The notes under the pieces were generated by a model, which was not told where the DNA came from, did not search any database, and saw only the letters and a list, made by a program, of their open reading frames with translations. From positions 61,264 to 125,263 of the IMG/VR virus record IMGVR_UViG_3300037264_003921: 64,000 bases of DNA; one strand, 5' to 3'. Positions 3,115 through 58,074 of this stretch are shown here, one piece after another. A program made the translations under genes and the position numbers. Every line of letters starts with the position of its first letter. The stretch's first letter is position 1. This DNA is from a virus.

Positions 3115-5958
3115 TTATACTGTACTGGCACCAACAACGACCCCAGCCGCTGCAAGGACTTCTTCAGCAGCAAAACTCTGCTCTGTACGTAGAATCACCA
3201 AATTCAACACGATGAATTCAGCAGCGCGTGTTGGCTTTAGAAGAATTGCCACATGAAGTTCGTTTCTATCAATGCGTTCAGGCGTGTTATTAGTCGAATC
3301 GCATATTACCTTAAATGCCTGCAATCCCCTACGCGCCATTATATCTTCAAGGAATGGGGTTATAGCAGACCTTACTTCTGCAAACAATAGCTTGTCTATC
3401 GGCTCAAACAAGAAGAATCTCAATAGGCGAACAAGATTCTTCTTTAAGAATATCAATAACATACGCACATTTACTCGATCAAGAGCCGTCTGACGACGTT
3501 GTAGTGTTCTCTGTCCGAAAACCGTAATGCCATCCTGTGGGAATTTAACTATTGGATTGACAGCGTTGCCACTACCATACAATAGATCACGTTCACCTTG
3601 TGTAGCATTAAATTCAACATCAAGAGCTGTCAATAAATGGCCTCTCTGTAATCCTGCTGGAGCAAACCACTGCTCACGCTCTCTTGCAGTTCTTGCAAAG
3701 ACACTGGCCGCAAATCCTGATGGCGGAACGAATAATTCCTCACCTGAGAATTGGTTGAAGATCTTCAGCCATGGCCAATATAATGCGCCATAACTAGAAT
3801 TAATAGCCGCAGAAAGGTCACTAAGCAGCATACCGTTATGCCAATCAACAGCCTGTTGTGGCCTCAAGCCAAACGGACTATCAACTAGATAAAGCATATC
3901 CCCACGGCCTTCACACAACTGGAGTGCCTGACCAATTACAGAGCCAGAGCTTACACCAGGAATGCATAGCAAATTAGTGTCGAATACTTCAGGATTCTGG
4001 AATGCAAATAAGCCAGTGGAAGTAGCTGGATTGCCAATTATGGCACGATCAAGCTCTGAACTAAATACTGGATCCGTTGGAATACCATTAGCCTGGCCAG
4101 AGAATATTCTATTCGTAACAGGCGTTGGGTTACGGACCTCAAAGCTTGGATCAGATGGATCATTATTCAAATATGATGGACGTGCTTCCCATTCAACAAA
4201 TGGGTTACCATTTACACCACCTAACGTGCTTCCTGCATTCAGGACGTTGGCAAGGTATCTAGCTTCACTTGAATCGAAGCTGAGATCGTCTACCCTATCA
4301 ACCTCAACACCGCTCTGGAACACTCTAATTGAATATCTGTCACCAATACTATTAAACAATTCAACGGTCACCCTTAGTGGGTCTACCCATGTTCCTGGAG
4401 TCTTAGCAACTAGGAATCCAACTATATTTTCATAATATGAAGTATCAGCCTCGCATGTATCACTTGCTGGATCAAGCTCACAGCTTAATGGTATTGATGG
4501 TGTTACTGTGCCAGGTGCTGGTAATGAAACACGTGGATCAGAGAATCCACGGTAATTTCTAGTATACGGGAATGGAATGTCAAGCTCTTCAGCAAACTTT
4601 AAAGTTTTAATATATGAGAAGGTTGCTTGTATCTTCAAAATTGCCAATTTTACGTCATCAGATGAAATTATAACAACTCTCGACTCACCATCTGCAACTT
4701 GCAATGCGAAACTGTCATAATAACGGTTCCCAGCCTTGACGCCGCCAAGATTCAACGCATCAGAAACTTCAGTGGTGTCAAGAGTACCATTTGGAATAGA
4801 CATTTCAAGATCAACAGTTGCATCAACACCTATCGATGAAATCCTGACACGATTGTTCGCGTTATTGATTATATATGGACCAGGATCATTACTTAACAAA
4901 TAGCTTCTTGGAATATCAAACACAAATTGTGAAACGCCAACTTCGAGAGCCCATGCTTCAATAGCCATTAGTTGTATACGATCGCCAGCTAGCTTTGTTA
5001 CTATTTCAGGGATTCCGCCAACATTTTGGGCAAGATAGTCTTCACCGCTACCGACCAATACATTGAATGCATCAACAAACGTATCGGTGTCTGTGAATGA
5101 TACTGTACCAAAAGAAAAACTTGGTGCTGCGCCACCTTGGACTGAAAAAGAGAAAGTTCTATTATCAGGACGAGTCTTAAACGAGAATGAATCATCAAGC
5201 TCAAGCGGGTTCGACCCAGTAACAACTATAGCAAATATTAACCCACAATCATTATCGCCAGTGCCAACCAATATTGGTTCTGAAGTGCCCAACGTACCAC
5301 TTTCTACAACGGCCCCTGAATTTGTCGTCACTCCATCACTGTTTCTGACTATCTCAAATCTAGCATCATCCATCACCGATCCACTGCTAGGAGGTGGAGC
5401 CTGAGTGATTAATACAGTAAAACTATCATCAATAGCATCTAAATAAGTGTCACTCAAACCAGCGCCGGTAAAATCTAATGTCGCAACAGTGATTTCTGAT
5501 CCGCCATCGATATCAGTAAAACTTATATCGAATACAGAGCCATCATGGAATTCAAAAGGTGCATCAGCACTTGGTGTACGAAGCAATATGCGGCCATGAT
5601 CAATACCTTTAAACAATGGGATACGACCCCATCCTTCAATTTTTAAACCACTCGTATCAATAGCGATGGCGGCAAGCTCATCTGGCTGGCCATCCTCGGC
5701 TTCAACACCTACTCGCAATATATATGCTTGATTGCCTTCTTCCATATAGTTAAGAACAGCGAATCCAAGAGAAGATTCTCTTATTGGCTCTCCAAATGTA
5801 TCGATGAACTGCTGAGAATTTGACACAAATGTTGGGGTATTTACTGGACCTTTTTTGGCTGTTCCAATAAATACTGGCCTAAGCGGCCCAACTGCTGTTG
5901 GCAGTGCACTGAGGTCTATCTCTCGTGGAAAAACTCCCGGGGAAAGGAAAACCGCCAT
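3115..5958 (-). CDS. tail sheath protein (gp18-like)
   Basis: N-term SPGVFPREIDLS, FIGTAKKGPVNTP; C-term YGALYWPW, WFAPAG..RG, VNPI, FGQRTL, LDRVNVR, PTRAAEFI. Confidence 0.96.
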   Translation of the reverse strand: MAVFLSPGVFPREIDLSALPTAVGPLRPVFIGTAKKGPVNTPTFVSNSQQFIDTFGEPIRESSLGFAVLNYMEEGNQAYILRVGVEAEDGQPDELAAIAIDTSGLKIEGWGRIPLFKGIDHGRILLRTPSADAPFEFHDGSVFDISFTDIDGGSEITVATLDFTGAGLSDTYLDAIDDSFTVLITQAPPPSSGSVMDDARFEIVRNSDGVTTNSGAVVESGTLGTSEPILVGTGDNDCGLIFAIVVTGSNPLELDDSFSFKTRPDNRTFSFSVQGGAAPSFSFGTVSFTDTDTFVDAFNVLVGSGEDYLAQNVGGIPEIVTKLAGDRIQLMAIEAWALEVGVSQFVFDIPRSYLLSNDPGPYIINNANNRVRISSIGVDATVDLEMSIPNGTLDTTEVSDALNLGGVKAGNRYYDSFALQVADGESRVVIISSDDVKLAILKIQATFSYIKTLKFAEELDIPFPYTRNYRGFSDPRVSLPAPGTVTPSIPLSCELDPASDTCEADTSYYENIVGFLVAKTPGTWVDPLRVTVELFNSIGDRYSIRVFQSGVEVDRVDDLSFDSSEARYLANVLNAGSTLGGVNGNPFVEWEARPSYLNNDPSDPSFEVRNPTPVTNRIFSGQANGIPTDPVFSSELDRAIIGNPATSTGLFAFQNPEVFDTNLLCIPGVSSGSVIGQALQLCEGRGDMLYLVDSPFGLRPQQAVDWHNGMLLSDLSAAINSSYGALYWPWLKIFNQFSGEELFVPPSGFAASVFARTAREREQWFAPAGLQRGHLLTALDVEFNATQGERDLLYGSGNAVNPIVKFPQDGITVFGQRTLQRRQTALDRVNVRMLLIFLKKNLVRLLRFFLFEPIDKLLFAEVRSAITPFLEDIMARRGLQAFKVICDSTNNTPERIDRNELHVAILLKPTRAAEFIVLNLVILRTEQSFAAEEVLAAAGVVVGASTV

Positions 5959-15932: not shown

Positions 15933-16194
15933 GGTTCGTTTCCTCCTTTGCCGCAGCGAGCGAGGTGGCGGGCAGGTGCCACAGTACCACGTCGCGTATT
16001 GTTGCGTTCATATAGGTATGACGACGAGCAACGGAATCTGTTTCATCGAAAATTCGGTGAGAAGTGGCAGGTGGTAGGCGTTACTGTCAGGTAACGGCGG
16101 CCGGTCGAGGAGCTGGGAGAGGGTCGTCCCTACATGATGCGGGAGCATAATTTTAGCAAGATTTTCAATAAAATCGTCCATTTAGTTATCCTAA

Positions 16195-16731
16195 CTATTG
16201 TGGGAAACCCATAAATCCTTTTAGATTTGGCAACTGTCCATATTTAACACCATTATAGCTGATATAGAATATGTCGATCCCAGGAGATGCAGTCTCTAGT
16301 GCTACTTTCAAATCAGCAACGTCATTTTGATTTTTAGTAGTAGGCAAATCCCCCCATCCCTGTGTTCCCTGCACTGGCGTCATAACAGACGTTTTCTCAG
16401 CATCCGTTGAACCACTATGTATGATTTTCGCAGTTGGTACAACTGGTGGGCGTGTAGAATCAGAGCTAGCCACAAATCCAACAATAGTCAGACGTGCGGG
16501 TGCTTGCCCAACTTGTGGTACGAACAATACGGGTGCTGCAACATTAAATCCAGCATCGATCAAATCATCTTCAACTTTTTGTGCTTTCTTCTCTAAATCT
16601 CTATGGTACTCGGCTTTGCGGCCGAACGCTCTTGATGGAACAACTTTTGCATATGCTACGAATGGTTCATATTTAGTGCCTTGAGGCCCACTAAGAGCTG
16701 GCATTCTTGTAGATGTAGAATAAAGTGTCAT
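16195..16731 (-). CDS. hypothetical, probable late/virion protein
   Basis: 178 aa; CAAATATA motif upstream. Confidence 0.65.
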   Translation of the reverse strand: MTLYSTSTRMPALSGPQGTKYEPFVAYAKVVPSRAFGRKAEYHRDLEKKAQKVEDDLIDAGFNVAAPVLFVPQVGQAPARLTIVGFVASSDSTRPPVVPTAKIIHSGSTDAEKTSVMTPVQGTQGWGDLPTTKNQNDVADLKVALETASPGIDIFYISYNGVKYGQLPNLKGFMGFPQ

Positions 16732-16810
16732 ATATTATATTTGATGATACTATCAAAATTATGATAGACGAAATTTCCGCCCATTCCTATATTGTGCCAG
16801 TCCGCACAAA

Positions 16811-17068
16811 TTAACACACACACGATAGCGCTGATATCGATGACGACGAAATGGATATGGGATTTGTCCGAGCCACTTCTAAAATATGCTTATGTAGATC
16901 TTGGCTTGAACGACCTCGCCCTAATGAATCGTAACAAACGCGACAAGCCAATTCACTCAACTGCTCATATTGAGTGCCGATCATTTGACCATCAGATGGC
17001 TTATCCATTTCTTCAGGAATTAAAACTTCGCCGCCATCATACACCAATTTAGCAATAATATGTTCCAC
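16811..17068 (-). pseudogene. truncated ThyX-like N-terminal fragment
   Basis: LSELACRVCYDSLG.GRSS...HKHILEV resembles ThyX N-terminus, then breaks into low-complexity tail where GH.S..EH would be expected. Confidence 0.5.
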
Positions 17069-17098
17069 AATTGCTAAAATACATGTTTAGATATAGTT

Positions 17099-17123
17099 TG
17101 GGCCAGCAATTTCTGCTGGCCCA
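17099..17123. terminator. GC-rich hairpin terminator
   Basis: tgggccagca-atttc-tgctggccca right after stop of 17134..17520. Confidence 0.7.
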
Positions 17124-17133
17124 TCCCATTCAG

Positions 17134-17520
17134 TTATACTGATCTCAACTCGTCGTGTAGATCATCAGTGAGAGACCCAACCTTCTTGAGTAAGAAGATG
17201 TCCCTGCCGATACGCTTCGGCATCGCCAAATCGGCGATACCAACAACTGCCTGCGCAGCTGTCACTACATCACGTAATTCACGAACTATTGGTAACCCAA
17301 CTCTGTTATTGTCAACAGATGTCGTTACGATGTCATCCGATGCATCACGGGTTTCCGTAACCAGATCCTCATGACCTGGAACCGACATGACTGCTCCACG
17401 CATGCCAGGGAATCCCAGCAATGGAAGAATCGCCTCATGACGTAGATCCTGACGATACGCACGTACGGTGTATTCCACCGAAATCAGTGTGTTCGCTGGT
17501 TGACTTGCCATTAATATCAC
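17134..17520 (-). CDS. hypothetical protein, own transcription unit; probable start 17511
   Basis: AGGAGG RBS before ATG 17511, upstream hairpin agagcca/tggctct, downstream terminator. Confidence 0.7.
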   Translation of the reverse strand: MILMASQPANTLISVEYTVRAYRQDLRHEAILPLLGFPGMRGAVMSVPGHEDLVTETRDASDDIVTTSVDNNRVGLPIVRELRDVVTAAQAVVGIADLAMPKRIGRDIFLLKKVGSLTDDLHDELRSV

Positions 17521-17590
17521 CTCCTAAACGGCTAAGAGCCACAATGGCTCTGTCCTACTGTAAATTTGACTAAATATTATTAAAATACCG

Positions 17591-17980
17591 TTAAGGTTTA
17601 GATGCGCGTTCTCTTATATGAACAGTTTCAATAGATTTAATATTGTGTACCGTCATACCATCACCAATTAAGGAATCACATTCTATAATAATGGCGATCT
17701 CAGGATGCTTTAAAGATTCAAACAATTTCTTAGCATCATCAAATAACTCTATGTCAGCAATTATTTCATCATTAAATAATCTTATATCATTCACTTTATG
17801 TGTAATGATTCCATCAACTGAATTAAAAGTCATTCTATCAAAGATGCCACCAAATACCTGCCCACCACTCAATCTACGCCTAAGATCCTCATCCTTTAAT
17901 GCAGATTCAATCGTTGCTTTCGGATATAAATTACCACGGCTTGTTGGAAAGTCTACATATATTCCAGAGCCAATTATCAT
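17591..17980 (-). CDS. degenerate prohead protease-like protein (T4 gp21 family)
   Basis: D.P...G..YP, VFG, THKV..I, IADIEL; lacks GELDH and SSRG catalytic motifs. Confidence 0.5.
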   Translation of the reverse strand: MIIGSGIYVDFPTSRGNLYPKATIESALKDEDLRRRLSGGQVFGGIFDRMTFNSVDGIITHKVNDIRLFNDEIIADIELFDDAKKLFESLKHPEIAIIIECDSLIGDGMTVHNIKSIETVHIRERASKP

Positions 17981-18014
17981 CTAATCTCTCGTATTATATT
18001 CGTCTATGGCAATA

Positions 18015-19163
18015 TTAGTCAACAAATATATAGTCATTATGATTTGGACCTGTCCCAATCATTACAACTGGTATACCTGCGGTCTCTTCCATCTTATCAA
18101 TAAATTTTCTAACCTTAATTGGCAGTTTATTAAACTGCGTTCTGCCGCCATGCATCTGATACGCAGACCAGTCAATATATTGTGGAAAATTTAATATCTG
18201 TTTAGTAGCCCCGCAGAATGAAGCGGATTCTTTAAGCAATTGCCATGAGAATGTAAACACACGTCTAATCTTCTTAGTAACTGTGGTACGTTCTTTTTCT
18301 GCCAACACTGATATCTCTGATTCAGGCATACCAGCTTCCCTGCCAATCTGATCCCATGTTAATTCATGTTGATCAGACATACAATCACCAGAGTATCCAG
18401 TTTGTTTCCCATCTCTATAATTATTACCAACACGAATAGGGAATGTTCTGACGTTTAGATACACGTCACCAACCATATTTGGTAATATGCCAAGATCAGA
18501 ATATGCTTGTTGTGGTGTGCAGTCTCTGAACGTACAATATGGATAGTGTGTGCCATGATTGACAGATAAAGCAAATCCTTGTGATACTTCATGCATAATT
18601 GAGTGCCCATCGCTTAACGTTCTGCGCACAGTATCAACAAATTGCATAGGCGTCAAAGTACTCATAACGTCGCTAGCTAACGTTGTCTCCGGTCTGCGCA
18701 TTGATTTCTCTGAAAATGCAGCTCCTGAGCCAGACATTGTTGAAGAAACTCTTTCTGTTGATTGAGATCCATTAGGAGATTCAATATCAATATGCCGCTG
18801 GCTCATAATAACAGCGCGTTGATGGATTTTGACAAGTTTATCATTTATTTTATAGCCAGTTTGTTCAAGTTCCTTATTAAATTGTTCAATCATAAATCCA
18901 GATCCTGGACCAACAAATAAATTCAAATTGCTAAATCTGTCTGCTTTAGTCTTATGAAGAATCGCTGAAGTTGGAACTACTTTTGCAACAAATTTGACAT
19001 TACCATCTAATCCATCAATGATGGCAGTATGTCCAGCATTTGCATAATTACATGTTGAAACATTATTAATATTATATATATCAACAAGCCGCGTTGATGC
19101 AGCTCCTTTTGCAGAGCTACCCCAGGCTGAGTCAACAATACAATTAAGTTTACCCTTTTGCAT
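18015..19163 (-). CDS. purZ: PurZ-like N6-succino-2-amino-dAMP synthase (adenylosuccinate synthetase family)
   Basis: DSAWGSSAKG (Ser where PurA has catalytic Asp), NAGHT, SQGFALS..YPYCTxRDCTP, RTFPIRVG, DQ.ELTW.Q.G, TTVTKKIRRVFTFS, LNFPQY. Confidence 0.82.
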   Translation of the reverse strand: MQKGKLNCIVDSAWGSSAKGAASTRLVDIYNINNVSTCNYANAGHTAIIDGLDGNVKFVAKVVPTSAILHKTKADRFSNLNLFVGPGSGFMIEQFNKELEQTGYKINDKLVKIHQRAVIMSQRHIDIESPNGSQSTERVSSTMSGSGAAFSEKSMRRPETTLASDVMSTLTPMQFVDTVRRTLSDGHSIMHEVSQGFALSVNHGTHYPYCTFRDCTPQQAYSDLGILPNMVGDVYLNVRTFPIRVGNNYRDGKQTGYSGDCMSDQHELTWDQIGREAGMPESEISVLAEKERTTVTKKIRRVFTFSWQLLKESASFCGATKQILNFPQYIDWSAYQMHGGRTQFNKLPIKVRKFIDKMEETAGIPVVMIGTGPNHNDYIFVD

Positions 19164-19249
19164 AATCCCTCCTGCCTACTGTATGAAATGCTTTACCATA
19201 TTTAGCGAGTGTTTCATTAATATCTACATTCACTCATTGTGTACAGTAA

Positions 19250-19594
19250 TTATAACTTGGATGCATGATCAATTGACATACGGAATGGCCAACACCTCCA
19301 ACAGCGTGTGCATCGAACGGCCTTCCTGCCGTCGCGGGTAAACCGGTGTGAACAGGGGCTTGATCCGTCCGGGATGATATAGCCCTTGGCGTCCAAATGC
19401 ACTGGCCATAACTCTTCGACCCATTCCTTCGCCTTACAACCCATCCATTGGCATTCACGACGATAGCCGCCGCCGACAAATTCCTCGATGGCATACCACT
19501 GACTCCATGCATGGTGAATAGTGCCATTGGTGCATCGCTTAAGACGCTTTTTCTTGTTCACCTTACGCATGCCCATGAGATATTCTCTTATCAC
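19250..19594 (-). CDS. Cys/His/Trp-rich hypothetical protein, GC-rich islet
   Basis: 114 aa with HAW, RRECQWMGC, CSHRF, CTRC; GC above flanks. Confidence 0.55.
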   Translation of the reverse strand: MIREYLMGMRKVNKKKRLKRCTNGTIHHAWSQWYAIEEFVGGGYRRECQWMGCKAKEWVEELWPVHLDAKGYIIPDGSSPCSHRFTRDGRKAVRCTRCWRCWPFRMSIDHASKL

Positions 19595-19597
19595 AAT

Positions 19598-20341
19598 TCA
19601 TAGACATTTAATGTATTTGGCCTGCCAGCCATTTTTAGACGTCGCCAAAGCAACATATTTGTCAACTAATGATTCTGGAACGTTATCCTTAATCCATTTT
19701 CTCTCGATCCATTTGAATCCAGCTTTTTTCAAAAACTCTTTTTGCAAATTAAAATCGGCATCGTCAAAATTAGGCTTGCCACTAAACCAGGCTTCAACCT
19801 TACAACGTGGCTCATTCATAATCTTCATAGCATGTTCTAAATTGTGCTTCGCCGCTAACTCACAACATGTTAATGCATCCCATAATGCTCTATGTCTCCT
19901 ACCTGAATCTACGCCATAATCAACAGCAAGGTGTTGTAGTCTTGTTGAATTAACATTACCAACAATCTTTTCATGTGGTAAATCATTTTTAGTGCATATC
20001 CATGGCAACGATAAAAACTCTGGCCACCTCTTTGTTATTAATCCTTTATCATAATCTTTATTATGTGCAACAATAACCACTGGTTTATAATGCTCTACTA
20101 ATTTCCATGGATTAAATTCACAACTATAACCATTATTAGATACGTCACGTTTAATTTTGTGTATAACTTCCGCTTCATTTGACCATTTTGTTGTTTTAAG
20201 AATATCAGAATGCATTGCTACAACCTGACTGTGGGTCGTATCATATACGACCATGCCGATCTCTACTATTTCATCAACATCAATGTTGAGACCAGTGCTC
20301 TCTACGTCAACAGATAAAATAATCATTAACCACAAAGCCAA
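19598..20341 (-). CDS. DEDDh 3'-5' exonuclease (DnaQ/epsilon-like); probable start 20326
   Basis: VDVESTG, VAHN..YD, HRALWD. Confidence 0.88.
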   Translation of the reverse strand: MALWLMIILSVDVESTGLNIDVDEIVEIGMVVYDTTHSQVVAMHSDILKTTKWSNEAEVIHKIKRDVSNNGYSCEFNPWKLVEHYKPVVIVAHNKDYDKGLITKRWPEFLSLPWICTKNDLPHEKIVGNVNSTRLQHLAVDYGVDSGRRHRALWDALTCCELAAKHNLEHAMKIMNEPRCKVEAWFSGKPNFDDADFNLQKEFLKKAGFKWIERKWIKDNVPESLVDKYVALATSKNGWQAKYIKCL

Positions 20342-20351
20342 TTATATCGTT

Positions 20352-20783
20352 TTAATTCCATGGAATTTTCTCCACCCAATGTTGTGGGACCCATAATAAT
20401 GACCCATCATTAAACTCGACACGATAATGCTTGTGGTCTCGTTTAGTTACTCTAGCTGGTTCCATATATTTTACATGTTCTTTATTAATTACTATAATCC
20501 ATGTACCCTCATTGAGTTCTGGGATTTGTGTTTTAAAAACTGGTATTCTATTGACTATCGCCAATTCACTATTTGACAGTCTGGCCCAAAACAAATTTGT
20601 GCATTTTATGCATATGATCGGTACATAGCCAACCTTCTCCCATGAAGAAGATACAGCTTTATTTTGCACATTACAAAATGGACAATTGAAATCGTCTGTT
20701 ATAGACTCATTTGACATCTGGACCCAACGTGTCGACGGCTTTTTCTTTGGCTGGCTCTTGCGTTTTTTGCGTTTCTTGCTCAT
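20352..20783 (-). CDS. Zn-ribbon + SH3-like hypothetical protein
   Basis: CPFC..CIKC; C-terminal YRVEFNDG..LWVP. Confidence 0.6.
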   Translation of the reverse strand: MSKKRKKRKSQPKKKPSTRWVQMSNESITDDFNCPFCNVQNKAVSSSWEKVGYVPIICIKCTNLFWARLSNSELAIVNRIPVFKTQIPELNEGTWIIVINKEHVKYMEPARVTKRDHKHYRVEFNDGSLLWVPQHWVEKIPWN

Positions 20784-21426
20784 TATAAAACCTAATTATA
20801 TTACTAGCTTGGTTTAGATTAACATCAAATCGCATATTTCTATCAGATTTAAATGCTTCAATTGTCTCATATGTCACATTACATGATATCTTTATCGGAG
20901 TAACGATCTTATTACGAACAACAGCAATCGCTTTCTTATGATCCTCCAATCCAACGCCATTCTTCAATGTATATGGATCTAATCTAACCCAATTACATGG
21001 ATATTTCACAATGGCATCAATATGCTGTTCAGATATACCACGGCCATAAGACCCAACTATCCATCTAATTTCAGCAACTGGGTTCACAGATTTTAAAAAT
21101 TCAGAAATTAATCTAACTTCATTGTCAATCTCTTTCCCAGTATGGCCATTTGAATACATTATATCGAATCCATCCGCAGCCAACGCATCCTCAGAAAGAT
21201 CACGCAATTTTTGCATTGCAAAATTCTTGCCATCAGGATAGTCAATAACAGCAATAATTTTATACTTACCACGTTTTGAAACCCTATCAGCGATAAATGG
21301 GGCAACTAAGCTAGGCACAGTAACTATTGCAGGGCAACTGTGTTTAAATACAAATGCGCCAACACGTACTGGATTTACCATTTTATCTAAAGCATTTAAT
21401 TCTAATCGTGTAGTAATTTGCAACAT
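20707..21426 (-). CDS. DeoC (deoxyribose-phosphate aldolase)-like TIM-barrel protein
   Basis: AVIDYPDG, K...ADGFDIM, PIKIS; Schiff-base Lys position appears to be Arg (WVRLD). Confidence 0.55.
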   Translation of the reverse strand: MLQITTRLELNALDKMVNPVRVGAFVFKHSCPAIVTVPSLVAPFIADRVSKRGKYKIIAVIDYPDGKNFAMQKLRDLSEDALAADGFDIMYSNGHTGKEIDNEVRLISEFLKSVNPVAEIRWIVGSYGRGISEQHIDAIVKYPCNWVRLDPYTLKNGVGLEDHKKAIAVVRNKIVTPIKISCNVTYETIEAFKSDRNMRFDVNLNQASNIIRFYNEQETQKTQEPAKEKAVDTLGPDVK

Positions 21427-22001
21427 TTCTTTTCCTTTTCATTTGTAAAACCATCATAACATACTGAAAACCATTTCAATGGGTCCATCTTAATACTGCC
21501 ATTATCCAATTTATCAACATGCCCAATTAATTGATCCCATGTTCTGAAAAACACATGATCCATATCTTGTGGCGTTGAAAACCTCTGTAATACCCATGTT
21601 GATGCAATCCCATCTGGCATACAAAATAAGACTGGTTTATCTATATCAGCTGCTAGATATATCTCTTCGAACGTGCCTGCGGTATACTTAATTGGCATCC
21701 AACATATAATCCAATCAGCAGACGACACCATTTTCAAACAAACTTGACGTAATTCTTTATTTGCATCGAATACATCATTTATTGTTATCCCAACAGGCTC
21801 ACCATTTAGACTTTTACGATATAATTTTGGGTCTACTTTTGAAATATCAGACAACCAACTAGGTTTAACTAATGGATCATATACTTTGACATTATATTTT
21901 AATAAACTACTAGTTATTTGGGTACGCCAATCTTTTGCATGGTCATCATGTTCAACTGGACCTGCTAAATATACTCGCGTGCCACCCAATAAATTCCCCA
22001 T
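21402..22001 (-). CDS. nucleoside 2-deoxyribosyltransferase-like / dNMP N-glycosidase family protein
   Basis: VYLAGP, WR, YDP, ADWII, AGTFEE, KPV. Confidence 0.75.
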   Translation of the reverse strand: MGNLLGGTRVYLAGPVEHDDHAKDWRTQITSSLLKYNVKVYDPLVKPSWLSDISKVDPKLYRKSLNGEPVGITINDVFDANKELRQVCLKMVSSADWIICWMPIKYTAGTFEEIYLAADIDKPVLFCMPDGIASTWVLQRFSTPQDMDHVFFRTWDQLIGHVDKLDNGSIKMDPLKWFSVCYDGFTNEKEKKCCKLLHD

Positions 22002-22030
22002 ACAGCTATTTACGCAGTATAGATACTTAG

Positions 22031-22201
22031 TTATGGCATTTCGTTCTTAGTACTTTCTCCAGGTTTATTCTTCTTTTTAAATCCCTGACCAAGCATAAAC
22101 TTTGGGTACTTTACTTTCTGTTCGTGATGTTGAGTGCCGCCGCCATGTGCCCCTTTGCTACTGTGCTTTGATTTACCAAAATTCACCTTTTTTTCTGCCA
22201 T
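22031..22201 (-). CDS. small basic protein (56 aa, below ORF-track cutoff)
   Basis: Hand translation MAEKKVNFGKSKHSSKG...; GAGGT RBS. Confidence 0.55.
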   Translation of the reverse strand: MAEKKVNFGKSKHSSKGAHGGGTQHHEQKVKYPKFMLGQGFKKKNKPGESTKNEMP

Positions 22202-22209
22202 AATTACCT

Positions 22210-23181
22210 CTATTCTATAGTTTTTAATTCATTCAATATTATATCTACAGCTGTCTTCTGATCAAGTTTGCCAAAATACTCAGCAAACTTATATTTATTA
22301 TATGATGAACAAAAAAATATCTTCTGTCGTTCTTCAGGTGTCAGTACATTTACAGCTGACATATAACTTTCTGCCTCACTATCAAATCGTTTTAGACGTA
22401 CATCATTAGCTACATCTGGGTTTTGTCCATAAAAATGTAACTTACCACTCACAGAACACATATCGACACCAAAGATGTAAATTTTATCATATTGCATCCA
22501 AACAGCTGTTTGAATATTTGCATATGTTGATGATCTACCAACATGATACCCTCTTACTAGATCTCTAGAAAACCCCTTTCCAGATAAACTCTTTATCAAA
22601 ACTTGGTTCTTATGTGGTGCTCGCACAGATGACGCATTTAATGTAGTACCATTATATTTTTCCCATATTTGTTTATTCCTTGTATATTGACTCTGATCGC
22701 AAAATGCCCAATAGCGTGATGGCCATATTCTGCTATCTGGTCTATTAATACACATTATGTCTATTTTCTTGTTATCTTTCAACTTTTCCAATGGCGCTTC
22801 AAGAACAGATGGTCCACATGCTACAATCACTAATATTCTACCACGCCCAATGCCACGCAATCCTTCAATCGCTGCTCTAAATTGCGCTACTCTATTTGAA
22901 TTGAGCCTATTTACACTACTGCTTATTAGACGTGGTTTATGTTCTCTTATTGGGAAGTTTACTCTAACATCTCTCTTTTGCTTAGGCTGCTGTTTGATTA
23001 TTGGTTTCGCAGCTTTAACCAACACTACCTGTGGCACTCTTGGTTGTATAATTTTTTGTTCAATATTTTGAGTCCTATTCGGTTTATTAACTTTAATGTG
23101 GACTCTCTGAATTGGTAGTTTATTCAATGATCTATAATTATGTGCCACAAAATATCTTTGGCATAAATTACAACCAACCAA
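22210..23181 (-). CDS. DUF115/Maf-like glycosyltransferase-fold protein; probable start GTG 23148
   Basis: IVACGPSV, IMCINR, WAFCD, SST..NIQ.A.WM.YDKIYIFGVDM, HFYG. Confidence 0.65.
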   Translation of the reverse strand: MVGCNLCQRYFVAHNYRSLNKLPIQRVHIKVNKPNRTQNIEQKIIQPRVPQVVLVKAAKPIIKQQPKQKRDVRVNFPIREHKPRLISSSVNRLNSNRVAQFRAAIEGLRGIGRGRILVIVACGPSVLEAPLEKLKDNKKIDIMCINRPDSRIWPSRYWAFCDQSQYTRNKQIWEKYNGTTLNASSVRAPHKNQVLIKSLSGKGFSRDLVRGYHVGRSSTYANIQTAVWMQYDKIYIFGVDMCSVSGKLHFYGQNPDVANDVRLKRFDSEAESYMSAVNVLTPEERQKIFFCSSYNKYKFAEYFGKLDQKTAVDIILNELKTIE

Positions 23182-23216
23182 TCACCGTAAGTTGTATAAA
23201 ATAATAGTATTAATAA

Positions 23217-23606: not shown

Positions 23607-23663
23607 ATCGTTGCTCCTGTGATATTGTAGGCATCTAACTCAAATACATTTATTGGAGGAAAC

Positions 23664-41197: not shown

Positions 41198-41800
41198 ATG
41201 AGAACACGCCTAGACGATACAGTTTTAGACACTGGACAGTGTTACAATAATGGTGATGGTTTAACTATTGGCTGTTTTTACGCTTTAGACTTCGTGAAAC
41301 ATTTCGGCAGGGTACAAACAGGGTCTAACATTTCGATTGCCATGCATAGCTATTTAGCAGCAATGATTGGTAGTGCGTGGTACACATATACAAAAAATGA
41401 TAAAAATTGGTCAATCAGCCAGCATGAATTTACTACGCTATGTCTTTTCCACGATGTTGCTGAAGCTCTTGTTGGGGATGTTTGGCGACCAGCAAAGACA
41501 AAAGAGGTAAGAGATCAAGAAGAAAAAGTTCACAATGCTATAATGAAGTTTATTACTATAGATACGAAAATTGCAAATGAATTTAAACATGAACAGGAAA
41601 AGATTGATAATTGTGCTCAATTTGTTGAATTAATCAGATATCTTGAAATAAGCCCAGGGCACAAGGTCTTTACTGAAATAGGCACACAGATGGCTAAAAC
41701 GATGGTTACAGAAGGCATGGAGGATTTTTGTTTGATAAATTTAGGGCTGTCTGAACATGAAATTGCAGTGGCACTACTAACAAAAGCAAAGGAGAAATAG
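41198..41800 (+). CDS. HD-domain deoxynucleotide phosphohydrolase (YfbR/DatZ-like)
   Basis: SIAMHSY, LFHDVAEA.VGD..RP.K, K.D. Confidence 0.78.
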   Translation: MRTRLDDTVLDTGQCYNNGDGLTIGCFYALDFVKHFGRVQTGSNISIAMHSYLAAMIGSAWYTYTKNDKNWSISQHEFTTLCLFHDVAEALVGDVWRPAKTKEVRDQEEKVHNAIMKFITIDTKIANEFKHEQEKIDNCAQFVELIRYLEISPGHKVFTEIGTQMAKTMVTEGMEDFCLINLGLSEHEIAVALLTKAKEK

Positions 41801-42668: not shown

Positions 42669-44078
42669 ATGAACGTTGACGATGATTTAGCTGGAGTAGA
42701 ACTTGCAGCTAAAAAGTATGCTGGACCTAGCGACTTTACACATTTACACACACACAGTCTGTTTTCTACACTTGATGGGGTGTCAACACCTGAACAATAC
42801 ATTAAAAGATGTGCACAAGTCGGCATGAAGAATTTTGCGCTCACAGACCATGGGAGCATGGCAGGTTTGCCAGATGCATATTGGGCTTCGAAAGAACATG
42901 GAATAAAACTGGCGGCAGGTTGTGAGATATATCTAAATGACTTTCATTTAAAAATGAAGGAATATCAAAATAAAGGGATTCAATTAAACACTTTAAAAAT
43001 TACAGATAAAGAATTTGTTGATCGATATCGTCGCAATAGGCATGTCACTGTAATTTGCAAAAACATGACTGGATATAAAAATCTAATCAATATACTGCAT
43101 GATGGCTATGAAATGGGTTTGTATTATAATAAACCAAGAACGTGGTTTGACCAACTTGTTAAATATAAAGAAGGATTAATAATCCTCTCTGGATGTCTAA
43201 ATGGGCCAGTTTGCCATGAATTAAGACTAGGCTCAGAAAAAAGGGACAACAATGATAGCAGTGCTACTGTTTATTATAAGAAGGCCGTTGATTATGTTAA
43301 TAAATTCAAAGGAGCATTTGGTGAGGATTTCTACTTAGAATTGCAAATGCCAGGTGAGTCAATAGCACGAGCAAAAGAAGTATTTTATCAAGTTTCTGCT
43401 ATTTCTCAGAAGACAGGTATAAAAGCTGTGATGACTGGTGATATCCATTATCTTCATCGTGCAGATTTTGAATTACAAAAGGCTATGATGGCTGTTGAGC
43501 AAGGAACAACAGTTGACGACCCAAATCTGTTCCATGTAGATTCAGATGAGGGGTTTTTTAAAACAAGAGCCCAATTCAGACAGACGTTCATAGAACATAG
43601 CTATAACAAATATGATCAAATAGGTTGGTTTGAAAAGTCATGCGACAACACAATGGAAGTTGCTGAGAAATGTAAGCAATTTGAGCCCGATCTGACACCT
43701 AAATTGCCTGAAATACAAGGAGCAGATCAAAAGATTAAACAATTGGTTGCTGAGTCATTAATAAAAAAAGGATTGCATAATAATCAAACTAAATATGTTG
43801 TTGATGGATGTATGGTTACATATGTTGAGCAAGCTAAGATAGAATTAGCGAGAATTATAGAGAAAAAATTTTCATCATACTTTTTAATAACAAGAAATTT
43901 AGTGCATTTCGCTAGGGATAATAAATATGATGTTGGTCCTGCACGTGGTAGTGCTGGCGGTAGTTTAATTTGTTATTTATTGGGGATTCATGAGCTTGAC
44001 CCGCTTTTGTGGGGATTAAGTTTTGATAGATTTTTAAGCCCAAGTAGAGGTGGATTTATGTTGAATGTGAAGATGTAA
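42669..44078 (+). CDS. dnaE: DNA polymerase III alpha, fragment 1 (PHP domain + N-terminal palm region)
   Basis: HLHTHS.FS.LDG, TDHG, GCE.Y, SGCL.G, D.HY, RGSAGGSL, FDRFL; ends before PDxDxD. Confidence 0.92.
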   Translation: MNVDDDLAGVELAAKKYAGPSDFTHLHTHSLFSTLDGVSTPEQYIKRCAQVGMKNFALTDHGSMAGLPDAYWASKEHGIKLAAGCEIYLNDFHLKMKEYQNKGIQLNTLKITDKEFVDRYRRNRHVTVICKNMTGYKNLINILHDGYEMGLYYNKPRTWFDQLVKYKEGLIILSGCLNGPVCHELRLGSEKRDNNDSSATVYYKKAVDYVNKFKGAFGEDFYLELQMPGESIARAKEVFYQVSAISQKTGIKAVMTGDIHYLHRADFELQKAMMAVEQGTTVDDPNLFHVDSDEGFFKTRAQFRQTFIEHSYNKYDQIGWFEKSCDNTMEVAEKCKQFEPDLTPKLPEIQGADQKIKQLVAESLIKKGLHNNQTKYVVDGCMVTYVEQAKIELARIIEKKFSSYFLITRNLVHFARDNKYDVGPARGSAGGSLICYLLGIHELDPLLWGLSFDRFLSPSRGGFMLNVKM

Positions 44079-45356: not shown

Positions 45357-45500
45357 ATGTCTAAAATTGTTAATATATCAATAGAGAAAGGTAAGTGCCG
45401 GGAAGTTATATCAGATGGATATTCAATCCAAAATGTGAGTGTAATCGGTGTTGGGATTAGTCACATGATTGAATACCAGACTGACTTCCCGGATGTTTGA
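45357..45500 (+). CDS. DnaE fragment 3 (47 aa): IntC-like N-terminus + EYQTDFPDV (not in ORF track)
   Basis: AAGGA RBS; MSKIVNISIEKG...GISHMIEYQTDFPDV-stop; a +1 shift gives PDVDIDLLP. Confidence 0.7.
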   Translation: MSKIVNISIEKGKCREVISDGYSIQNVSVIGVGISHMIEYQTDFPDV

Positions 45501-47670
45501 CATTGATCTATTGCCTGGTACGCGAGAAAAAGTTGAAGCTTTTGCTGCAAAAGAATATGGCAGTGACAAAGTATGTAGCGTCGGGCTGTGGCAGACATAT
45601 AAGCCAAAACTTGCGCTACAAGATGCTGCGAGGGCGCTTGGATATGATGTTGAAAATGTAATAAGATTAACAAAGAATTTACCTGATGAATTTGATGATC
45701 TTGAATATAAAGAAGCAATTGCTGAATATAATGATTTCAGAGTTTTTGCAGAAACAAATTCGCAATTAGTAAAAATGGCCTACAGGATGGTAGGTGGAAT
45801 AAAGGCACAAGGAAGACACGCAGGCGGACTAATTATATCAAGTGTCCCAATAAAAGACCATATTCCAATGACTATCTGTAGTGAACGATGGACAAGCGCG
45901 TGGACAGAAGGATATAGCCCACAATTATCAAAATTTGGATTTGTGAAATTTGATTTGCTTGGATTGAAAACTTTACTATATATAAAAACGTGCTTGGAAC
46001 TTATTGAAAAAAACCGTGGTATTAAAATAGAATGGTCAGATATAAATCCAGCAGAAGACCGAGCTGGATGGTTAATTGACCAACAAGGTAAACGAAGTGC
46101 TATATCATTGAATGATGAAGAGTCTCTAGATTTAGCTAGACAACTGCGTACAGAAACAGTGTTTCAGTTTGAGACTGAGTTAGCTAAAAGCATCTTAGCA
46201 AAAGGTGGTGTCAAATCGTTTAATGATTTGGTTGTGTACACGTCGCTTGGACGTCCTGGACCGCTGCCAATGGTCGAATCATATATTAGAAGGCGTGACG
46301 GCGATGAAAAATGGGAAGACGATGAGCATCCAGAAATAACAGAACGTTTACGTAGTACATTTAATGTATGCTGTTACCAAGAACAATTGGCATCATTGTG
46401 GAGGGGCATAGCAGGATTTACTGTTCCTGAAGCAGAGGCTGCTAGGAAGGCTGTTTCTAAAAAATGGACTGACAAATTAGCACCGATTAAAGACAAGTGG
46501 GTGGCTGGAGCATCAAAAACCATTGGGGTTGAACGAGCTGAAGAATGGTGGGTAAAAATGGAAACATTCGGCCGTTATGCATTCAACCTCAGCCATGCAA
46601 CTGCATATATATTGATTACTCATAGATGTTTATATCTAAAAGCTCACTTCCAAGCTGAATGGTGGGCGGCCGTCATGTCTGATTGCGATACAGATAGATT
46701 ATCAAAGTATATGGGATACGCAAGAGCAGAAGGGGTGTCATTTGGGTCAATTGATATTGATAATCTAAGCATGAAATTTGTTATTAATAAAGAAATAGTA
46801 ACGCCGGGCTTGACTAGTATCAAAAACATGAATGGTGAATTAGCAGAAAATCTTTCTAAAAAATCTTCAAATGGCGTTAAATATAAAGATATTGATGATT
46901 TCGTATTACAAACTAGCAAGAATAAAATTGCATGTGAGCGATTAATTAAGCTTGGTGCATTTGATAATAAACATAGCAATCGCAAAGCATTATGGACGTG
47001 GTATCAATATCAATATGGAAGCGACGATGAGAGTAAGGAAATGCGAAGATTTATCAAATGTGCGTATGCATGGCCGATGGATAAAATTGAAGTAGAGAGA
47101 AAACGTCAGGCTGATGAATTTAGGAAACAATATCCAACTAGGAAAGTAATACCACCAAAGATCGCTAAATGGCTACCAAAGATGTTATTTCGGCGTGATG
47201 AATATGTAATACCTAACGTCATTGACGATGCTGTTTATGAATCAGCAAAGTATCTGCAATTAACTAGGGACAATGTGATGTCATTGGTCAACAGTGACTT
47301 CGCATTGAAGGAACTGCTTCAATTTGAAAGACAATATCTAGGATATTGCATTCATTCGCCAATGAATTTATTCAAGCATGGGTACGACACAACAATATCA
47401 GACGCACGCGAGAAAGGCATATTAGAAGCGTACATTGAAAAATTTACCATTCGTCAGAAAAAAACAGAATTCGCTGAGTTAATAGTCACAGATGGAACTG
47501 AGAATGCAAAGGTGATGGTTTGGTCTGATGATTTGTTATCGAATGGTCAAGACACATTACATGAAGGAAAAGGTGTTCGGATGCGTGTATCTTGGAAGGA
47601 TAAATTTAAGAGTTTTAGTCTTCGCTCAGGAAGTATAGTCATACCATTGGAGCCGGTCGATGCTACTTAA
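45493..47670 (+). CDS. dnaE: DNA polymerase III alpha, main catalytic fragment
   Basis: DID, GRHAGG, KFDLLGL, VFQFE, RPGP, YQEQ, YAFN.SHA, YLKAH, C-terminal OB-like region; ORF track starts at 45469. Confidence 0.92.
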   Translation: MFDIDLLPGTREKVEAFAAKEYGSDKVCSVGLWQTYKPKLALQDAARALGYDVENVIRLTKNLPDEFDDLEYKEAIAEYNDFRVFAETNSQLVKMAYRMVGGIKAQGRHAGGLIISSVPIKDHIPMTICSERWTSAWTEGYSPQLSKFGFVKFDLLGLKTLLYIKTCLELIEKNRGIKIEWSDINPAEDRAGWLIDQQGKRSAISLNDEESLDLARQLRTETVFQFETELAKSILAKGGVKSFNDLVVYTSLGRPGPLPMVESYIRRRDGDEKWEDDEHPEITERLRSTFNVCCYQEQLASLWRGIAGFTVPEAEAARKAVSKKWTDKLAPIKDKWVAGASKTIGVERAEEWWVKMETFGRYAFNLSHATAYILITHRCLYLKAHFQAEWWAAVMSDCDTDRLSKYMGYARAEGVSFGSIDIDNLSMKFVINKEIVTPGLTSIKNMNGELAENLSKKSSNGVKYKDIDDFVLQTSKNKIACERLIKLGAFDNKHSNRKALWTWYQYQYGSDDESKEMRRFIKCAYAWPMDKIEVERKRQADEFRKQYPTRKVIPPKIAKWLPKMLFRRDEYVIPNVIDDAVYESAKYLQLTRDNVMSLVNSDFALKELLQFERQYLGYCIHSPMNLFKHGYDTTISDAREKGILEAYIEKFTIRQKKTEFAELIVTDGTENAKVMVWSDDLLSNGQDTLHEGKGVRMRVSWKDKFKSFSLRSGSIVIPLEPVDAT

Positions 47671-49296: not shown

Positions 49297-49992
49297 ATGG
49301 ATTTTAATCACAGACAAGACCGATCTATGAGAGAAATAGAATATCATGATTGGAATAGACAGAACCGTGATAGACTTTCAGAAGATCAGCTTGAGAAATT
49401 GTTGATGCTGCGGCCATTACGTGCAACATGTAAATCATGTACTATGTGCAGATTAGGTCGCATGCAGCATGAACATGATAACAAACTTGAGGAATGTCAT
49501 GTATTTAGCAACATGAATCCATCAAGATATATGGTAGTAGCACAAAACCCCGGATATAATGAATGTATTGGTGATGAGCCATTAATTGGCGATTCTGGTG
49601 AGATATTTGATGAAATAATAGAACGAAACGGATTATCAAGAAGTACATTTTATATAACAAACGTTGTTAAATGTTATTCACCGTCAAATAGAAAGCCAGA
49701 AATTGATGAAGTTGTGGCTTGCGAACCGTTCTTAACGATAGAACTTAAATTATTAAGACCAATTATTGTTGTGTCGCTTGGGGCTGTAGCATTTGAATCA
49801 TTATGTCCATCATTGTCATTTTCGGACAGCCTTGGTAAGATAGTTAAATCAAAATTTGATGTGAATGTATATCCTGTCTATCATCCATCACCAAGAAATA
49901 TGGCTGATAAACATAGAAAGAAAAGATTTGAAGCTGATATGCGAGTTTTATGTGAGATGATCAAGAGGTTGAATAAAAATGGACAAACATAA
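49297..49992 (+). CDS. uracil-DNA glycosylase family 4
   Basis: CxxCxL Fe-S, AQNPG..E...PLIG.SG, TNVVKC, NRKP, LGAVA, YHPS. Confidence 0.9.
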   Translation: MDFNHRQDRSMREIEYHDWNRQNRDRLSEDQLEKLLMLRPLRATCKSCTMCRLGRMQHEHDNKLEECHVFSNMNPSRYMVVAQNPGYNECIGDEPLIGDSGEIFDEIIERNGLSRSTFYITNVVKCYSPSNRKPEIDEVVACEPFLTIELKLLRPIIVVSLGAVAFESLCPSLSFSDSLGKIVKSKFDVNVYPVYHPSPRNMADKHRKKRFEADMRVLCEMIKRLNKNGQT

Positions 49993-56931: not shown

Positions 56932-58074
56932 GTGCTTTACATCTACACAGCTTTCAAAAAACCATCAAAGCCATTAGCTACCATAGTGTACGATAGCATT
57001 AACAACACTGTAGACATATATGACTTATATCTACAAGGCTCTGGATTGAAATTATACGCTGTTGAACAGCGAAAGAAATACATCGCTTCGTTGTTTGATG
57101 GTGAAGTGGCTGTAAATGATTTTAAAGCACATTTATGTGCATTTGGTCTACCAACCAATAAAGATTATAAAACCTTTGATATACCATTCACAGATGACAC
57201 TAAACAATCAAATAATGATGAACTTAAGAAAATATTGATGTCAAAAATTATTGAAATTAAAACCCAGCCACATAAAGAAACGTGGCAGTCACTTCTGTCA
57301 AACGCAACCTTGGTGTATCAAGATCTTGAAAATCGTGGTGTGTTGTTTGAATCAATGTTAGTCCATCCGATATATGGAACTAACACATTTACTGGAAGGT
57401 CGTCTACATCTGATTTTAACATACAAGGAATGGGTGATGGACAGGATATTACTTCAGTATCATATGACAATGATATTTTTGTATATGCCGATTGGATAGC
57501 TGCTGATATGCGTATGGCGTCGATAATGTCTAACGACATTGAAATGCAAAAAGCATTTGAATTGTCTGATCCATATGAATATCTCGCAACCAAGATAAAC
57601 ACTGATGTCACACGAGACGAATGCAAGAAAGCGTTATTAAGTAGCATTTATGCTCTTAATTATGATAATACAATATTAGACTTATATCCACAGTTAAAAA
57701 ACTGGATCATTAGTTCATGTGAGAAGCTCGAAATAGATAAATATCTTTCATCTATTCTTGGTAGAAAATTTCATCTAAATAAAAACAACCATAGGTCGGT
57801 GTTCAACGCAACTATTCAAGGCAGTGTAGCACATGCTATGCAAAATGTCCTTATAAAGTTGCATCAAAAAATGCCGGAGTTAATTTTAACTGAAATGCAT
57901 GATTCAGTAATATTATGTTGTAGGAAAGATCTATTAAAAAAAACGGTCGAGTTTGTAAAAGACACGATGTTACATCCATTTAACGGCATAATAGATTCTA
58001 ATCCATTATTTCCTCTCAGAGTAAGTATAGGTAACAAATGGCGTAATTGGAAACTTTTTAAAACGTATAGGTAA
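56932..58074 (+). CDS. short family A DNA polymerase
   Basis: TGRS...NIQ, ADWIAADMR (A), R...K......Y (B), N..IQGS.A, MHDS (C). Confidence 0.82.
   Translation: MLYIYTAFKKPSKPLATIVYDSINNTVDIYDLYLQGSGLKLYAVEQRKKYIASLFDGEVAVNDFKAHLCAFGLPTNKDYKTFDIPFTDDTKQSNNDELKKILMSKIIEIKTQPHKETWQSLLSNATLVYQDLENRGVLFESMLVHPIYGTNTFTGRSSTSDFNIQGMGDGQDITSVSYDNDIFVYADWIAADMRMASIMSNDIEMQKAFELSDPYEYLATKINTDVTRDECKKALLSSIYALNYDNTILDLYPQLKNWIISSCEKLEIDKYLSSILGRKFHLNKNNHRSVFNATIQGSVAHAMQNVLIKLHQKMPELILTEMHDSVILCCRKDLLKKTVEFVKDTMLHPFNGIIDSNPLFPLRVSIGNKWRNWKLFKTYR

Follow-up and report, generated by a model that had tools for sequence, protein, structure and literature searches.

A candidate PurZ-type synthetase from a clade of uncultured phages and its accompanying genes in a very large myophage

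Identification of the purZ gene

We describe here the gene of a candidate PurZ-type synthetase (N6-succino-2-amino-2'-deoxyadenylate synthase) carried by a viral DNA stretch of 64,000 nucleotides, hereafter called the window, which represents positions 61,264 to 125,263, that is the second half, of the single linear IMG/VR viral contig IMGVR_UViG_3300037264_003921 (125,263 bp). Judged from its sequence, predicted fold and place in phylogenetic trees, the corresponding open reading frame (ORF), named purZ below, very probably encodes the PurZ of a new and widespread clade of uncultured phages. The best reading of the accompanying gene set is that it would constitute a new variant of the pathway leading to 2-aminoadenine (Z) in DNA. 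It is, in our opinion, fairly probable that the enzyme is a functional PurZ acting on dGMP, aspartate and ATP with the help of a variant set of partners, and that Z is placed in the phage DNA.

The purZ ORF (Table 1) begins with an ATG codon and runs in a frame free of internal stops. Its product matches the PF00709 (Adenylsucc_synt) profile with 87.6 bits for a cut-off of 27 (E 9.5e-25), as well as PHROG 1211, a family with the annotation PurZ-type synthetase (E 3.1e-50). Among NCBIfam families, the curated PurZ model NF038379 ranks first, the runner-up being PRK04293 (157.8 bits). In the same way, phiVC8 PurZ (1.6e-32) precedes the short PurA of Pyrococcus horikoshii (3.8e-31) and S-2L PurZ (1.3e-27) in the ranking of PDB sequences, followed at a lower level by phage Archimedes PurZ0 (3.1e-16) and Escherichia coli PurA (about 4e-11). 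The AlphaFold2 model of the protein (pLDDT 92.4) has phiVC8 PurZ (6fko_A, E 2.3e-26) as its closest PDB fold. An archaeal PurA (2d7u) is matched nearly as well (E 2.2e-25), so that the fold alone does not separate PurZ from PurA.

Active-site residues

The first-pass annotation of this DNA, made by a model from the letters alone, had proposed a PurZ-type enzyme on the basis of a list of motifs, all of which we found again in the translation: WGSSAKG (residues 14-20), EVSQG (192-196), CTFR (210-213), FPIRVG (241-246), TTVTKKIRRVFTFS (293-306) and LNFPQY (324-329). Ser16 falls in the column of Asp13 of E. coli PurA, of Ser14 of phiVC8 PurZ and of S23 of S-2L PurZ. In an alignment of homologues, 247 of 255 rows have a serine in this column, the eight others being five N-terminally truncated sequences, one mis-started sequence and two PurA outgroups; within the clade of the query, the count is 123 of 125. 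In the published comparison (PMC12884076), 99% of the PurA clade have conserved Asp13, and the 147 phage PurZ sequences all have Ser.

The comparison was extended to the binding sites of S-2L PurZ for dGMP, aspartate and (d)ATP, which are lined by 30 residues according to section 7 of PMC8342488. The purZ ORF has the same residue at 26 of these 30 positions, including the complete TTVT aspartate loop, Val245, which bars the ribose 2'-OH, and N325, F326 and Q328, which hold the adenine of ATP. Together with Y329, the latter residues form an ATP-type base pocket, where PurZ0 has S/M/D/Q and E. coli PurA T/K/D/V. Each of the four differences (Y21>W, G25>A, G130>S and R244>N, that is W14, A18, S140 and N248 of the query) concerns either a contact made by the backbone or a position at which known PurZ and PurZ0 proteins are themselves variable. 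Concerning the key residues of phiVC8 PurZ listed in section 8 of the metaGPA preprint (bioRxiv 10.1101/2025.10.22.683976), S14, P144, P233, W252, G256, T262, F295 and Y298 have the same counterpart in the purZ ORF, F12, Y244 and S273 are replaced by Trp, Met and Thr, respectively, and I34 falls in an alignment gap.

These data bear on another explanation, namely that the protein serves as an auxiliary PurA, of the short type found in archaea, and would raise the AMP/dATP supply of an AT-rich phage. The genome is indeed AT-rich, PRK04293 is the second-best NCBIfam match and the P. horikoshii enzyme is nearly as close as phiVC8 PurZ in sequence and fold (E-values above). However, the PurA hallmarks are absent from the purZ ORF. 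The sites that discriminate between the types are Asp/Lys/Asp in E. coli PurA and Ser/Met/Asp in PurZ0; the P. horikoshii protein keeps the catalytic Asp (GDEGKG), the GRRRR stretch (TVTGRRRR) and the GTP-specifying TKLD/TxLD site (TMLD), where the purZ ORF has Ser16, KKIRR and NFPQY. Furthermore, the gene is linked to genes of the dA-removal type (see below), next to which a dATP-booster role would make no sense. Considering Ser16, the shared pocket residues, the ATP-type N/F/Q pocket and the tree position presented in the next section, we retain the assignment to the PurZ type rather than to the PurA type, and an auxiliary PurA appears highly improbable.

The first-pass annotation had also suspected that three unusual substitutions (GK to AK in the P-loop, EGxQG to EVSQG and CTSR to CTFR) alter the substrate, an idea that we abandon. 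Indeed, among the 79 rows with at least 55% identity (query included), V193 is found in 79, F212 in 60 and A18 in 49. The P-loop Ala also occurs in PurZ0 (GSEAKG) and the Val in Bacillus phage vB_BpsS-140 (EVAQG); a deeper sub-clade of 360-436 kb phages has GSSGKG, EGSQG and CTSR. A18, V193 and F212 are thus features of the lineage, present in a protein that shares most of its pocket with S-2L PurZ, and as such give no evidence of a new substrate.

Phylogenetic position and diversity of the clade

A word-indexed search with the purZ ORF collected 921 proteins at E <= 1e-10. The 119 best non-self matches have 41-70% identity and come from contigs of up to 428,825 bp. An exhaustive HMMER search of 50%-identity representatives gave 1931 proteins at E <= 1e-3, with 1089 at E <= 1e-10. 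Cultured phages account for 199 matching records, all in the band below 60% identity and, among the matches listed, none above 36%.

Trees were computed with FastTree (161 rows) and IQ-TREE (76 rows, LG+G4), using E. coli PurA as outgroup; for the IQ-TREE sample the representatives were subsampled and the PurA-like row of mycobacteriophage Catera was dropped because of its long branch. Both programs agree on the topology: PurZ0 is basal (100/100), the other 71 rows form a group that we call PurZ sensu lato (100/97), and the 25 sampled rows of the query clade are monophyletic inside this group (100/98). The phylogeny that the first-pass annotation had suggested making thus puts the ORF within PurZ sensu lato, apart from both E. 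coli PurA and PurZ0.

Across 39 clade members sharing 46-71% identity, 62 columns are invariant. Inteins tend to stay in functionally important genes. All ten long homologues scanned (747-1197 aa; P0121-P0125, P0127, P0129, P0137, P0138 and P0142) contain LAGLIDADG endonuclease domains, and six of them also intein-splicing matches; the inserts, of which P0129 has two, are placed at two active-site motifs, one site following NAGHT near residue ~52 of the query and the other preceding the conserved Cys of YPYCT near residue ~210. With the intact reading frame of the query and the synteny conserved among relatives (see below), these intein-type inserts and invariant columns make it scarcely credible that purZ is a decaying or non-functional relic.

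Related genes were also met outside the viral collection. A scan of prokaryotic genomes yielded 11 loci with a PurZ-like gene. Two of them belong to cultured myxobacteria, the identity being 39.7% for Sorangium sp. So ce131 and 39.2% for Chondromyces apiculatus DSM 436. On the Sorangium chromosome (L101:452-7871), a phage integrase gene is found at a distance of about 4.5 kb from the purZ-like gene, which is overlapped by a downstream gene whose C-terminal part encodes a dUTPase domain. Probably, the locus belongs to a prophage carrying a PurZ/DutZ-like pair. When the NDT, DERA-like and other neighbouring genes of the window were searched by tblastn against the 11 prokaryotic loci, the PurZ-like gene alone was matched.

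About 200 records of Mycobacterium cluster-C myophages carry the label 'PurA-like' or '2-aminooxy adenylosuccinate synthetase'. The PurZ-style name looks like an over-annotation, because the Catera protein has the catalytic Asp and groups with E. coli PurA.

Our literature search, which did not extend to Zhou 2021 and Tong 2023, yielded no published account of a PurZ in jumbo phages or myophages, nor of one accompanied by DnaE. The query clade may already be within published lists, since PMC13128860 gives more than 2000 viruses predicted by PurZ homology.

Gene string around purZ and its conservation in relatives

In the window, purZ is preceded on the same strand by a small Cys-rich ORF, a DnaQ-like exonuclease gene, a Zn-ribbon-like ORF, the gene g20707, whose predicted product has the fold of deoxyribose-phosphate aldolases (DERA, DeoC), and a gene of the NDT superfamily; their coordinates and the basis of their annotation are given in Table 1. 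No match was obtained by megablast of window positions 16000-24000 against the phage collection.

Table 1. Genes of the window considered in this work (coordinates in the window)
Feature	Length (aa)	Coordinates	Strand	Basis and remarks
Tail sheath	947	3115..5958	-	phrog_23 E 3.9e-76; marks contractile tail
PurZ-type synthase candidate	382	18015..19163	-	PF00709, NF038379, pocket residues, fold, tree
Small Cys-rich ORF	114	19250..19594	-	weak sub-threshold Pfam match; between exonuclease gene and purZ
DnaQ-like DEDDh 3'-5' exonuclease	247	19598..20341	-	PF00929 E 5.6e-9
Zn-ribbon-like ORF	143	20352..20783	-	weak Elf1-type zinc-ribbon match under cut-off; 4/80 related loci
DERA (DeoC)-fold protein g20707	239	20707..21426	-	AlphaFold2 model pLDDT 90.5; Foldseek
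NDT-superfamily protein (DmtZ-like candidate)	199	21402..22001	-	PF15891 36.0 bits (cut-off 30), PF05014 29.2 (28.8)
MptE-like/WaaZ-like putative transferase g22210		22210..23181	-	weak PF01973, phrog_4603 and TIGR04437, all under cut-offs
HD_3/YfbR-like phosphohydrolase (DatZ-family candidate)	200	41198..41800	+	PF13023 38 bits (cut-off 22.5), PF12917 32.9 (25.9)
DnaE N-terminal part (PHP and start of Pol III alpha core)		42669..44078	+	PF02811 E 1.3e-39, PF07733 E 1.1e-25
DnaE C-terminal part (rest of core, fingers, HhH)		45469..47670	+	PF07733, PF17657, PF14579
UDG-superfamily protein		49297..49992	+	PF03167 E 5.2e-24; in replication module
Short family-A polymerase-like ORF	380	56932..58074	+	PF00476 E 2.4e-16, profile positions 239-379 only

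The PurZ0 phages possess an NDT-family enzyme, DmtZ, which carries out the hydrolysis of dAMP and moves the deoxyribose 5-phosphate to the Z base, and its critical residues are Tyr6, Asn77, Glu103 and Asp12 (PMC12884076). A local-pair alignment of the NDT-superfamily protein of the window with the NDTs of the clade and DmtZ of phage Wayne aligns Tyr11, Glu17 (at the Asp12 position) and the Glu of TAGTFEE with these residues, the placement of the Asn77 equivalent not being confident. No useful information came from a global MAFFT alignment that included two Archimedes ORFs and the DmtZ-DutZ fusion of Wayne. Besides, NDT and UDG domains have been associated with dZ-selected contigs and a dA-preferring NDT has been demonstrated (bioRxiv 10.1101/2025.10.22.683976).

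For the model of g20707, all 29 PDB matches listed by Foldseek are deoxyribose-phosphate aldolases or close aldolase relatives, the best being 6d33_A (E 8.5e-11, TM 0.74/0.79), and an Atlas structure search is concordant. Its family has D62, G66, K73, F110, P143, R148, K179 and N183 as invariant residues. No Pfam or NCBIfam match was found for g20707, and hhalign of its family against the single sequence of E. coli DeoC was not significant (probability 0.5%); the assignment to DERA therefore rests on the fold.

The exonuclease matches, in addition to PF00929, phrog_192 ('DNA polymerase exonuclease subunit', E 1.3e-22) and the 3'-5' exonuclease and PolC-exo models of NCBIfam.

Relatives of this region were collected with the clade alignment A1, a search with the single purZ protein having returned none. 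In total, 80 viral loci were retrieved, together with 30 whole records (G001-G030, behind L004-L057), 13 of which are at least 90% complete. By tblastn over the 80 loci, g22210 was found in 18, g23217 in 17, g20707 in 16, a sigma-like gene in 15, the long-type NDT in 3, the DnaQ-like exonuclease near purZ in 3 and the Cys-rich ORF in none. A compact same-strand string, in the order MptE-like, NDT (~130 aa), DERA-fold (~230 aa), small ORF, PurZ, recurs in the relatives, the small ORF standing at the position of the Zn-ribbon-like ORF of the window. Eight loci have the string with the short NDT (L008, L033, L034, L035, L042, L044, L045 and L053); in L004, L030, L032 and the window, it contains an NDT of the long type.

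The whole records show how these genes are combined with polymerases. NDT (PF05014) occurs in 12 of the 30 (4 above the cut-off) and HD_3 (PF13023) in 8 (7 above), never together, and one or the other is found in 11 of the 13 records that are at least 90% complete. Among the 12 records with NDT, the Pfam match is located upstream of purZ at no more than 2.6 kb in 8; two others have it at distances of about 10 and 12.6 kb, and in the remaining two it is remote from purZ. DnaE (PF07733) is detected in 15 records, which include all 12 with NDT and none of the six complete ones with HD_3. PolA (PF00476) ORFs of 820-1087 aa are present in 11 records, including all 8 with HD_3; PolA-like ORFs of ~400 aa are found in 11 DnaE-bearing records (one below the cut-off). 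The clade has two configurations, NDT, DERA-fold, DnaE and a ~400-aa PolA-like protein (12 records) versus HD_3 with full-length PolA, the latter group (8 records) including phages of 360-436 kb. The contig of the window is unusual in having NDT and HD_3 together.

A dUTPase (PF00692) is encoded in 14 of the 30 records. In the complete 160.7-kb relative G003, the dUTPase gene stands beside the NDT gene (G003:C1:136413-137326), the pair being located about 10 kb from purZ.

HD hydrolase, replication genes and other features of the phage

The HD_3/YfbR-like gene is situated directly upstream of DnaE, 22 kb from purZ. Compared with S-2L DatZ, its product has conserved metal ligands and residues equivalent to P79, K81 and K116, and has F in the place of W20. 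The generic HD profile (PF01966) had no match in the 125-kb contig.

The first-pass annotation had described a large AT-rich myophage using DnaE. The base composition bears out the AT-richness (GC content of 0.32-0.42 in 2-kb windows), and the tail sheath gene identifies a myophage. As for the polymerase, one of the C family is indeed present in this contractile-tailed phage, but its DnaE is split and a PolA-like ORF also exists. The latter covers the C-terminal third of PF00476, no exonuclease domain being detected in it, and it is flanked by the genes of a DnaB-like helicase and a gp32-like SSB; a separate 5'-3' exonuclease gene lies at 59718-60620. The window also encodes SbcCD-like nuclease subunits and RecA. 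CheckV estimates the completeness of the contig at ~34%, two thirds of the genome lying outside it.

Three small ORFs (44080-45270) stand between the two DnaE halves, and split DnaE matches are also seen in many relatives.

Two paralogous ORFs of ~500 aa, 6007-7554(-) and 11858-13321(+), have HNH/homing-endonuclease matches (phrog_559, phrog_3339) and, at their C-terminus, a match to phrog_1384 ('Mom-like DNA modification protein'; E 1.4e-28 and 5.3e-33, respectively). A gene of the DAHP_synth_1 family (KDO8P-synthase-like, E 1.4e-41) is found at 40014-40799(+); with the MptE-like/WaaZ-like gene, it may point to some keto-sugar chemistry.

Proposed pathway and alternatives

In the pathway that we propose, PurZ would condense dGMP and aspartate, using ATP, to form N6-succino-2-amino-2'-deoxyadenylate, from which host PurB and kinases would produce dZTP. 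In the DNA of the phage, 2-aminoadenine would then take the place of all or part of the adenine. The NDT-superfamily enzyme of the purZ string would cleave dAMP as DmtZ does, its DERA-fold partner handling the deoxyribose 5-phosphate, and the DatZ-family HD hydrolase encoded beside the polymerase genes could take part in the removal of adenine nucleotides. For replication, the phage would rely on its split DnaE together with the DnaQ-like exonuclease whose gene stands beside purZ. What the analysis establishes is the family, the fold, the active-site residues, the tree position, the linkage of the genes and their co-occurrence; the enzymatic activities, the origin of the dGMP and Z in the DNA are predictions. 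From what is generally known of large lytic phages, dGMP may come from the breakdown of host DNA, in which case MazZ would be dispensable. One may speculate that the exonuclease beside purZ gives selectivity for Z over A; we keep this as speculation because exonuclease-dead DpoZ retains its Z preference (PMC8599892).

Several observations weigh against this proposal. First, concerning the synthetase, the score of 196.2 bits on NF038379 is under the 300-bit cut-off of the model, so that under NCBI's rule the name PurZ is not assigned to the protein; another clade member, P0103, scores 195.5 bits, compared with 397.2 for phiVC8 PurZ and 325.0 for Archimedes PurZ0. In the trees, in which no archaeal PurA is included, the query clade is separate from the clade (83/93) containing S-2L, phiVC8, ZP6, BUCT555 and BCSR129, and every characterised PurZ falls outside it. 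Second, concerning the partners, a phmmer search of the NDT-like protein against PDB sequences gave no match at E <= 1, and the short NDT forms of the relatives keep the Tyr and Glu but have no acidic residue at the DmtZ Asp12 position. The invariant R148 of g20707 appears, from motif spacing judged by eye without superposition, at the place of the DERA Schiff-base Lys, K179 being kept, which makes a plain aldolase activity doubtful. In the HD protein, Arg replaces Ile22, the DatZ residue that excludes the 2-amino group (PMC8065100), and His replaces Arg19; its comparison with PDB sequences gave no significant DatZ match, only weak ones to YfbR (E 0.022) and Lin2634 (E 0.064). Third, MazG (PF03819), DUF550 (PF04447), dUTPase (PF00692) and PurB (PF00206) had no match in the 125-kb contig, from whose ~34% completeness it follows that MazZ need not be absent from the whole phage; MazG was detected in 3 of the 30 related records. 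Likewise, a DpoZ-type PolA with a 3'-5' exonuclease domain was not found in the contig, which has the split DnaE instead.

Part of these observations would suit PurZ-like chemistry that does not lead to wholesale replacement of A by Z, that is a partial substitution, a further-modified 2-aminopurine or the use of another substrate such as a ribonucleotide, in which the NDT and DERA-fold partners would perform a yet-undescribed salvage or base-exchange chemistry. The separate position and sub-cut-off score of the clade, the lack of a detected MazZ or DpoZ in the contig, the missing Ile22 and the apparent loss of the Schiff-base Lys all go in this direction, as do the pocket positions W14, A18, S140 and N248 and the conserved transferase-like neighbour g22210. 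However, these four positions are the backbone contacts or variable sites mentioned above, the rest of the S-2L pocket is unchanged, including the ribose-excluding V245 and the whole aspartate loop, and a link between NDT-family enzymes and full Z genomes already exists (PMC12884076). We regard chemistry of this kind as unlikely and prefer a functional PurZ that, with a variant helper set, would supply Z to the phage DNA.

A more specific version of the preferred reading was also considered, according to which a widespread lineage of very large DnaE/DnaQ myophages would possess its own pathway for Z, or for a further-modified 2-aminopurine, in which a single operon would couple PurZ with an NDT-type enzyme destroying dAMP and with a remodelled DERA-fold protein. 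The pathway would be free of MazZ, its dGMP being derived from degraded host DNA, and would rely on copying by a C-family polymerase whose proofreader is encoded near purZ. The DERA-fold protein, having lost its Schiff-base lysine, would then perform new chemistry on deoxyribose 5-phosphate. We put this version forward tentatively, as possible but on balance doubtful.

Significance

Z-DNA has so far been shown to occur naturally in no more than a handful of small sipho- and podoviruses, which rely on a family-A DpoZ or on a PrimPol. If the enzymes of this clade are active, Z genomes would extend to very large contractile-tailed phages (the contigs of relatives reach 436 kb) and to the C-family replisome, and NDT with the DERA-fold protein would make up a third route of adenine-nucleotide removal beside DatZ/MazZ and DutZ/DmtZ. 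A separate pathway of the DnaE/DnaQ lineage, if real, would include the first Z replisome that is neither of the A family nor based on PrimPol. These possibilities bear on the frequency of restriction-resistant Z-DNA in nature and on the choice of polymerases that tolerate Z, which is of interest to synthetic biology. In terms of annotation, the curated NCBI model of PurZ misses the whole clade. The homologues of the probable myxobacterial prophages offer a culturable entry point.

Comparison with known Z systems

The first-pass annotation had stated that the characterised Z phages are smaller sipho- or podoviruses, and this agrees with the literature, which describes small phages of these two types with DpoZ or PrimPol (PMC8599892, PMC12884076). 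The PurZ proteins of phiVC8 and S-2L (PDB 6FM1/6FKO/6TNH and 7ODX; NF038379) have in common with the purZ ORF the fold, the Ser at the Asp13 position, the TTVT loop, the PIRV motif, the ATP-type N/F/Q(N) and F/Y pocket and the membership of PurZ sensu lato. They differ by the level of identity (~29-34%) and by their length, the query being ~20-40 aa longer with insertions around 247-262 and 275-290. They are encoded by podo- or siphoviruses of 40-45 kb with DpoZ or PrimPol, in contrast to the very large myophage with DnaE described here, and next to a MazZ/DatZ pair that has no equivalent beside the purZ of the window. DatZ itself belongs to the same Pfam families as the HD protein of the window, with 17-21% identity; its gene is adjacent to purZ in the S-2L/phiVC8-type pair, whereas the HD gene is 22 kb away, beside DnaE.

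The short PurA of P. horikoshii (PH0438, PDB 2D7U/5K7X) is similar in length and fold and obtains near-equal scores, but differs by its Asp, GRRRR and TMLD. As for DERA/DeoC, g20707 has the TIM-barrel fold in common with these enzymes (TM 0.63-0.80 among the 29 matches listed) at 12-18% identity.

Finally, the system composed of PurZ0, DmtZ and DutZ (Ghobes, Wayne, Archimedes; PMC12884076; PDB 7VF6) differs from the present one by the synthetase, PurZ0 being the basal sister group with M/Q where the query has the ATP-pocket residues F326/Y329, and by the organisation of the partners, since the NDT of the window is paired with a DERA-fold gene and not fused to Dut, no DutZ having been found in the contig; between Wayne DmtZ and the NDT-like protein, the likeness consists of the aligned motifs and does not extend to a sequence-level match. 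Nevertheless, the P-loop Ala (GS-AKG) is common to PurZ0 and the query, the NDT/dUTPase neighbours of the relative G003 resemble the separate DmtZ/DutZ pair of Ghobes and, as in the window, a gene of the NDT superfamily accompanies the synthetase.

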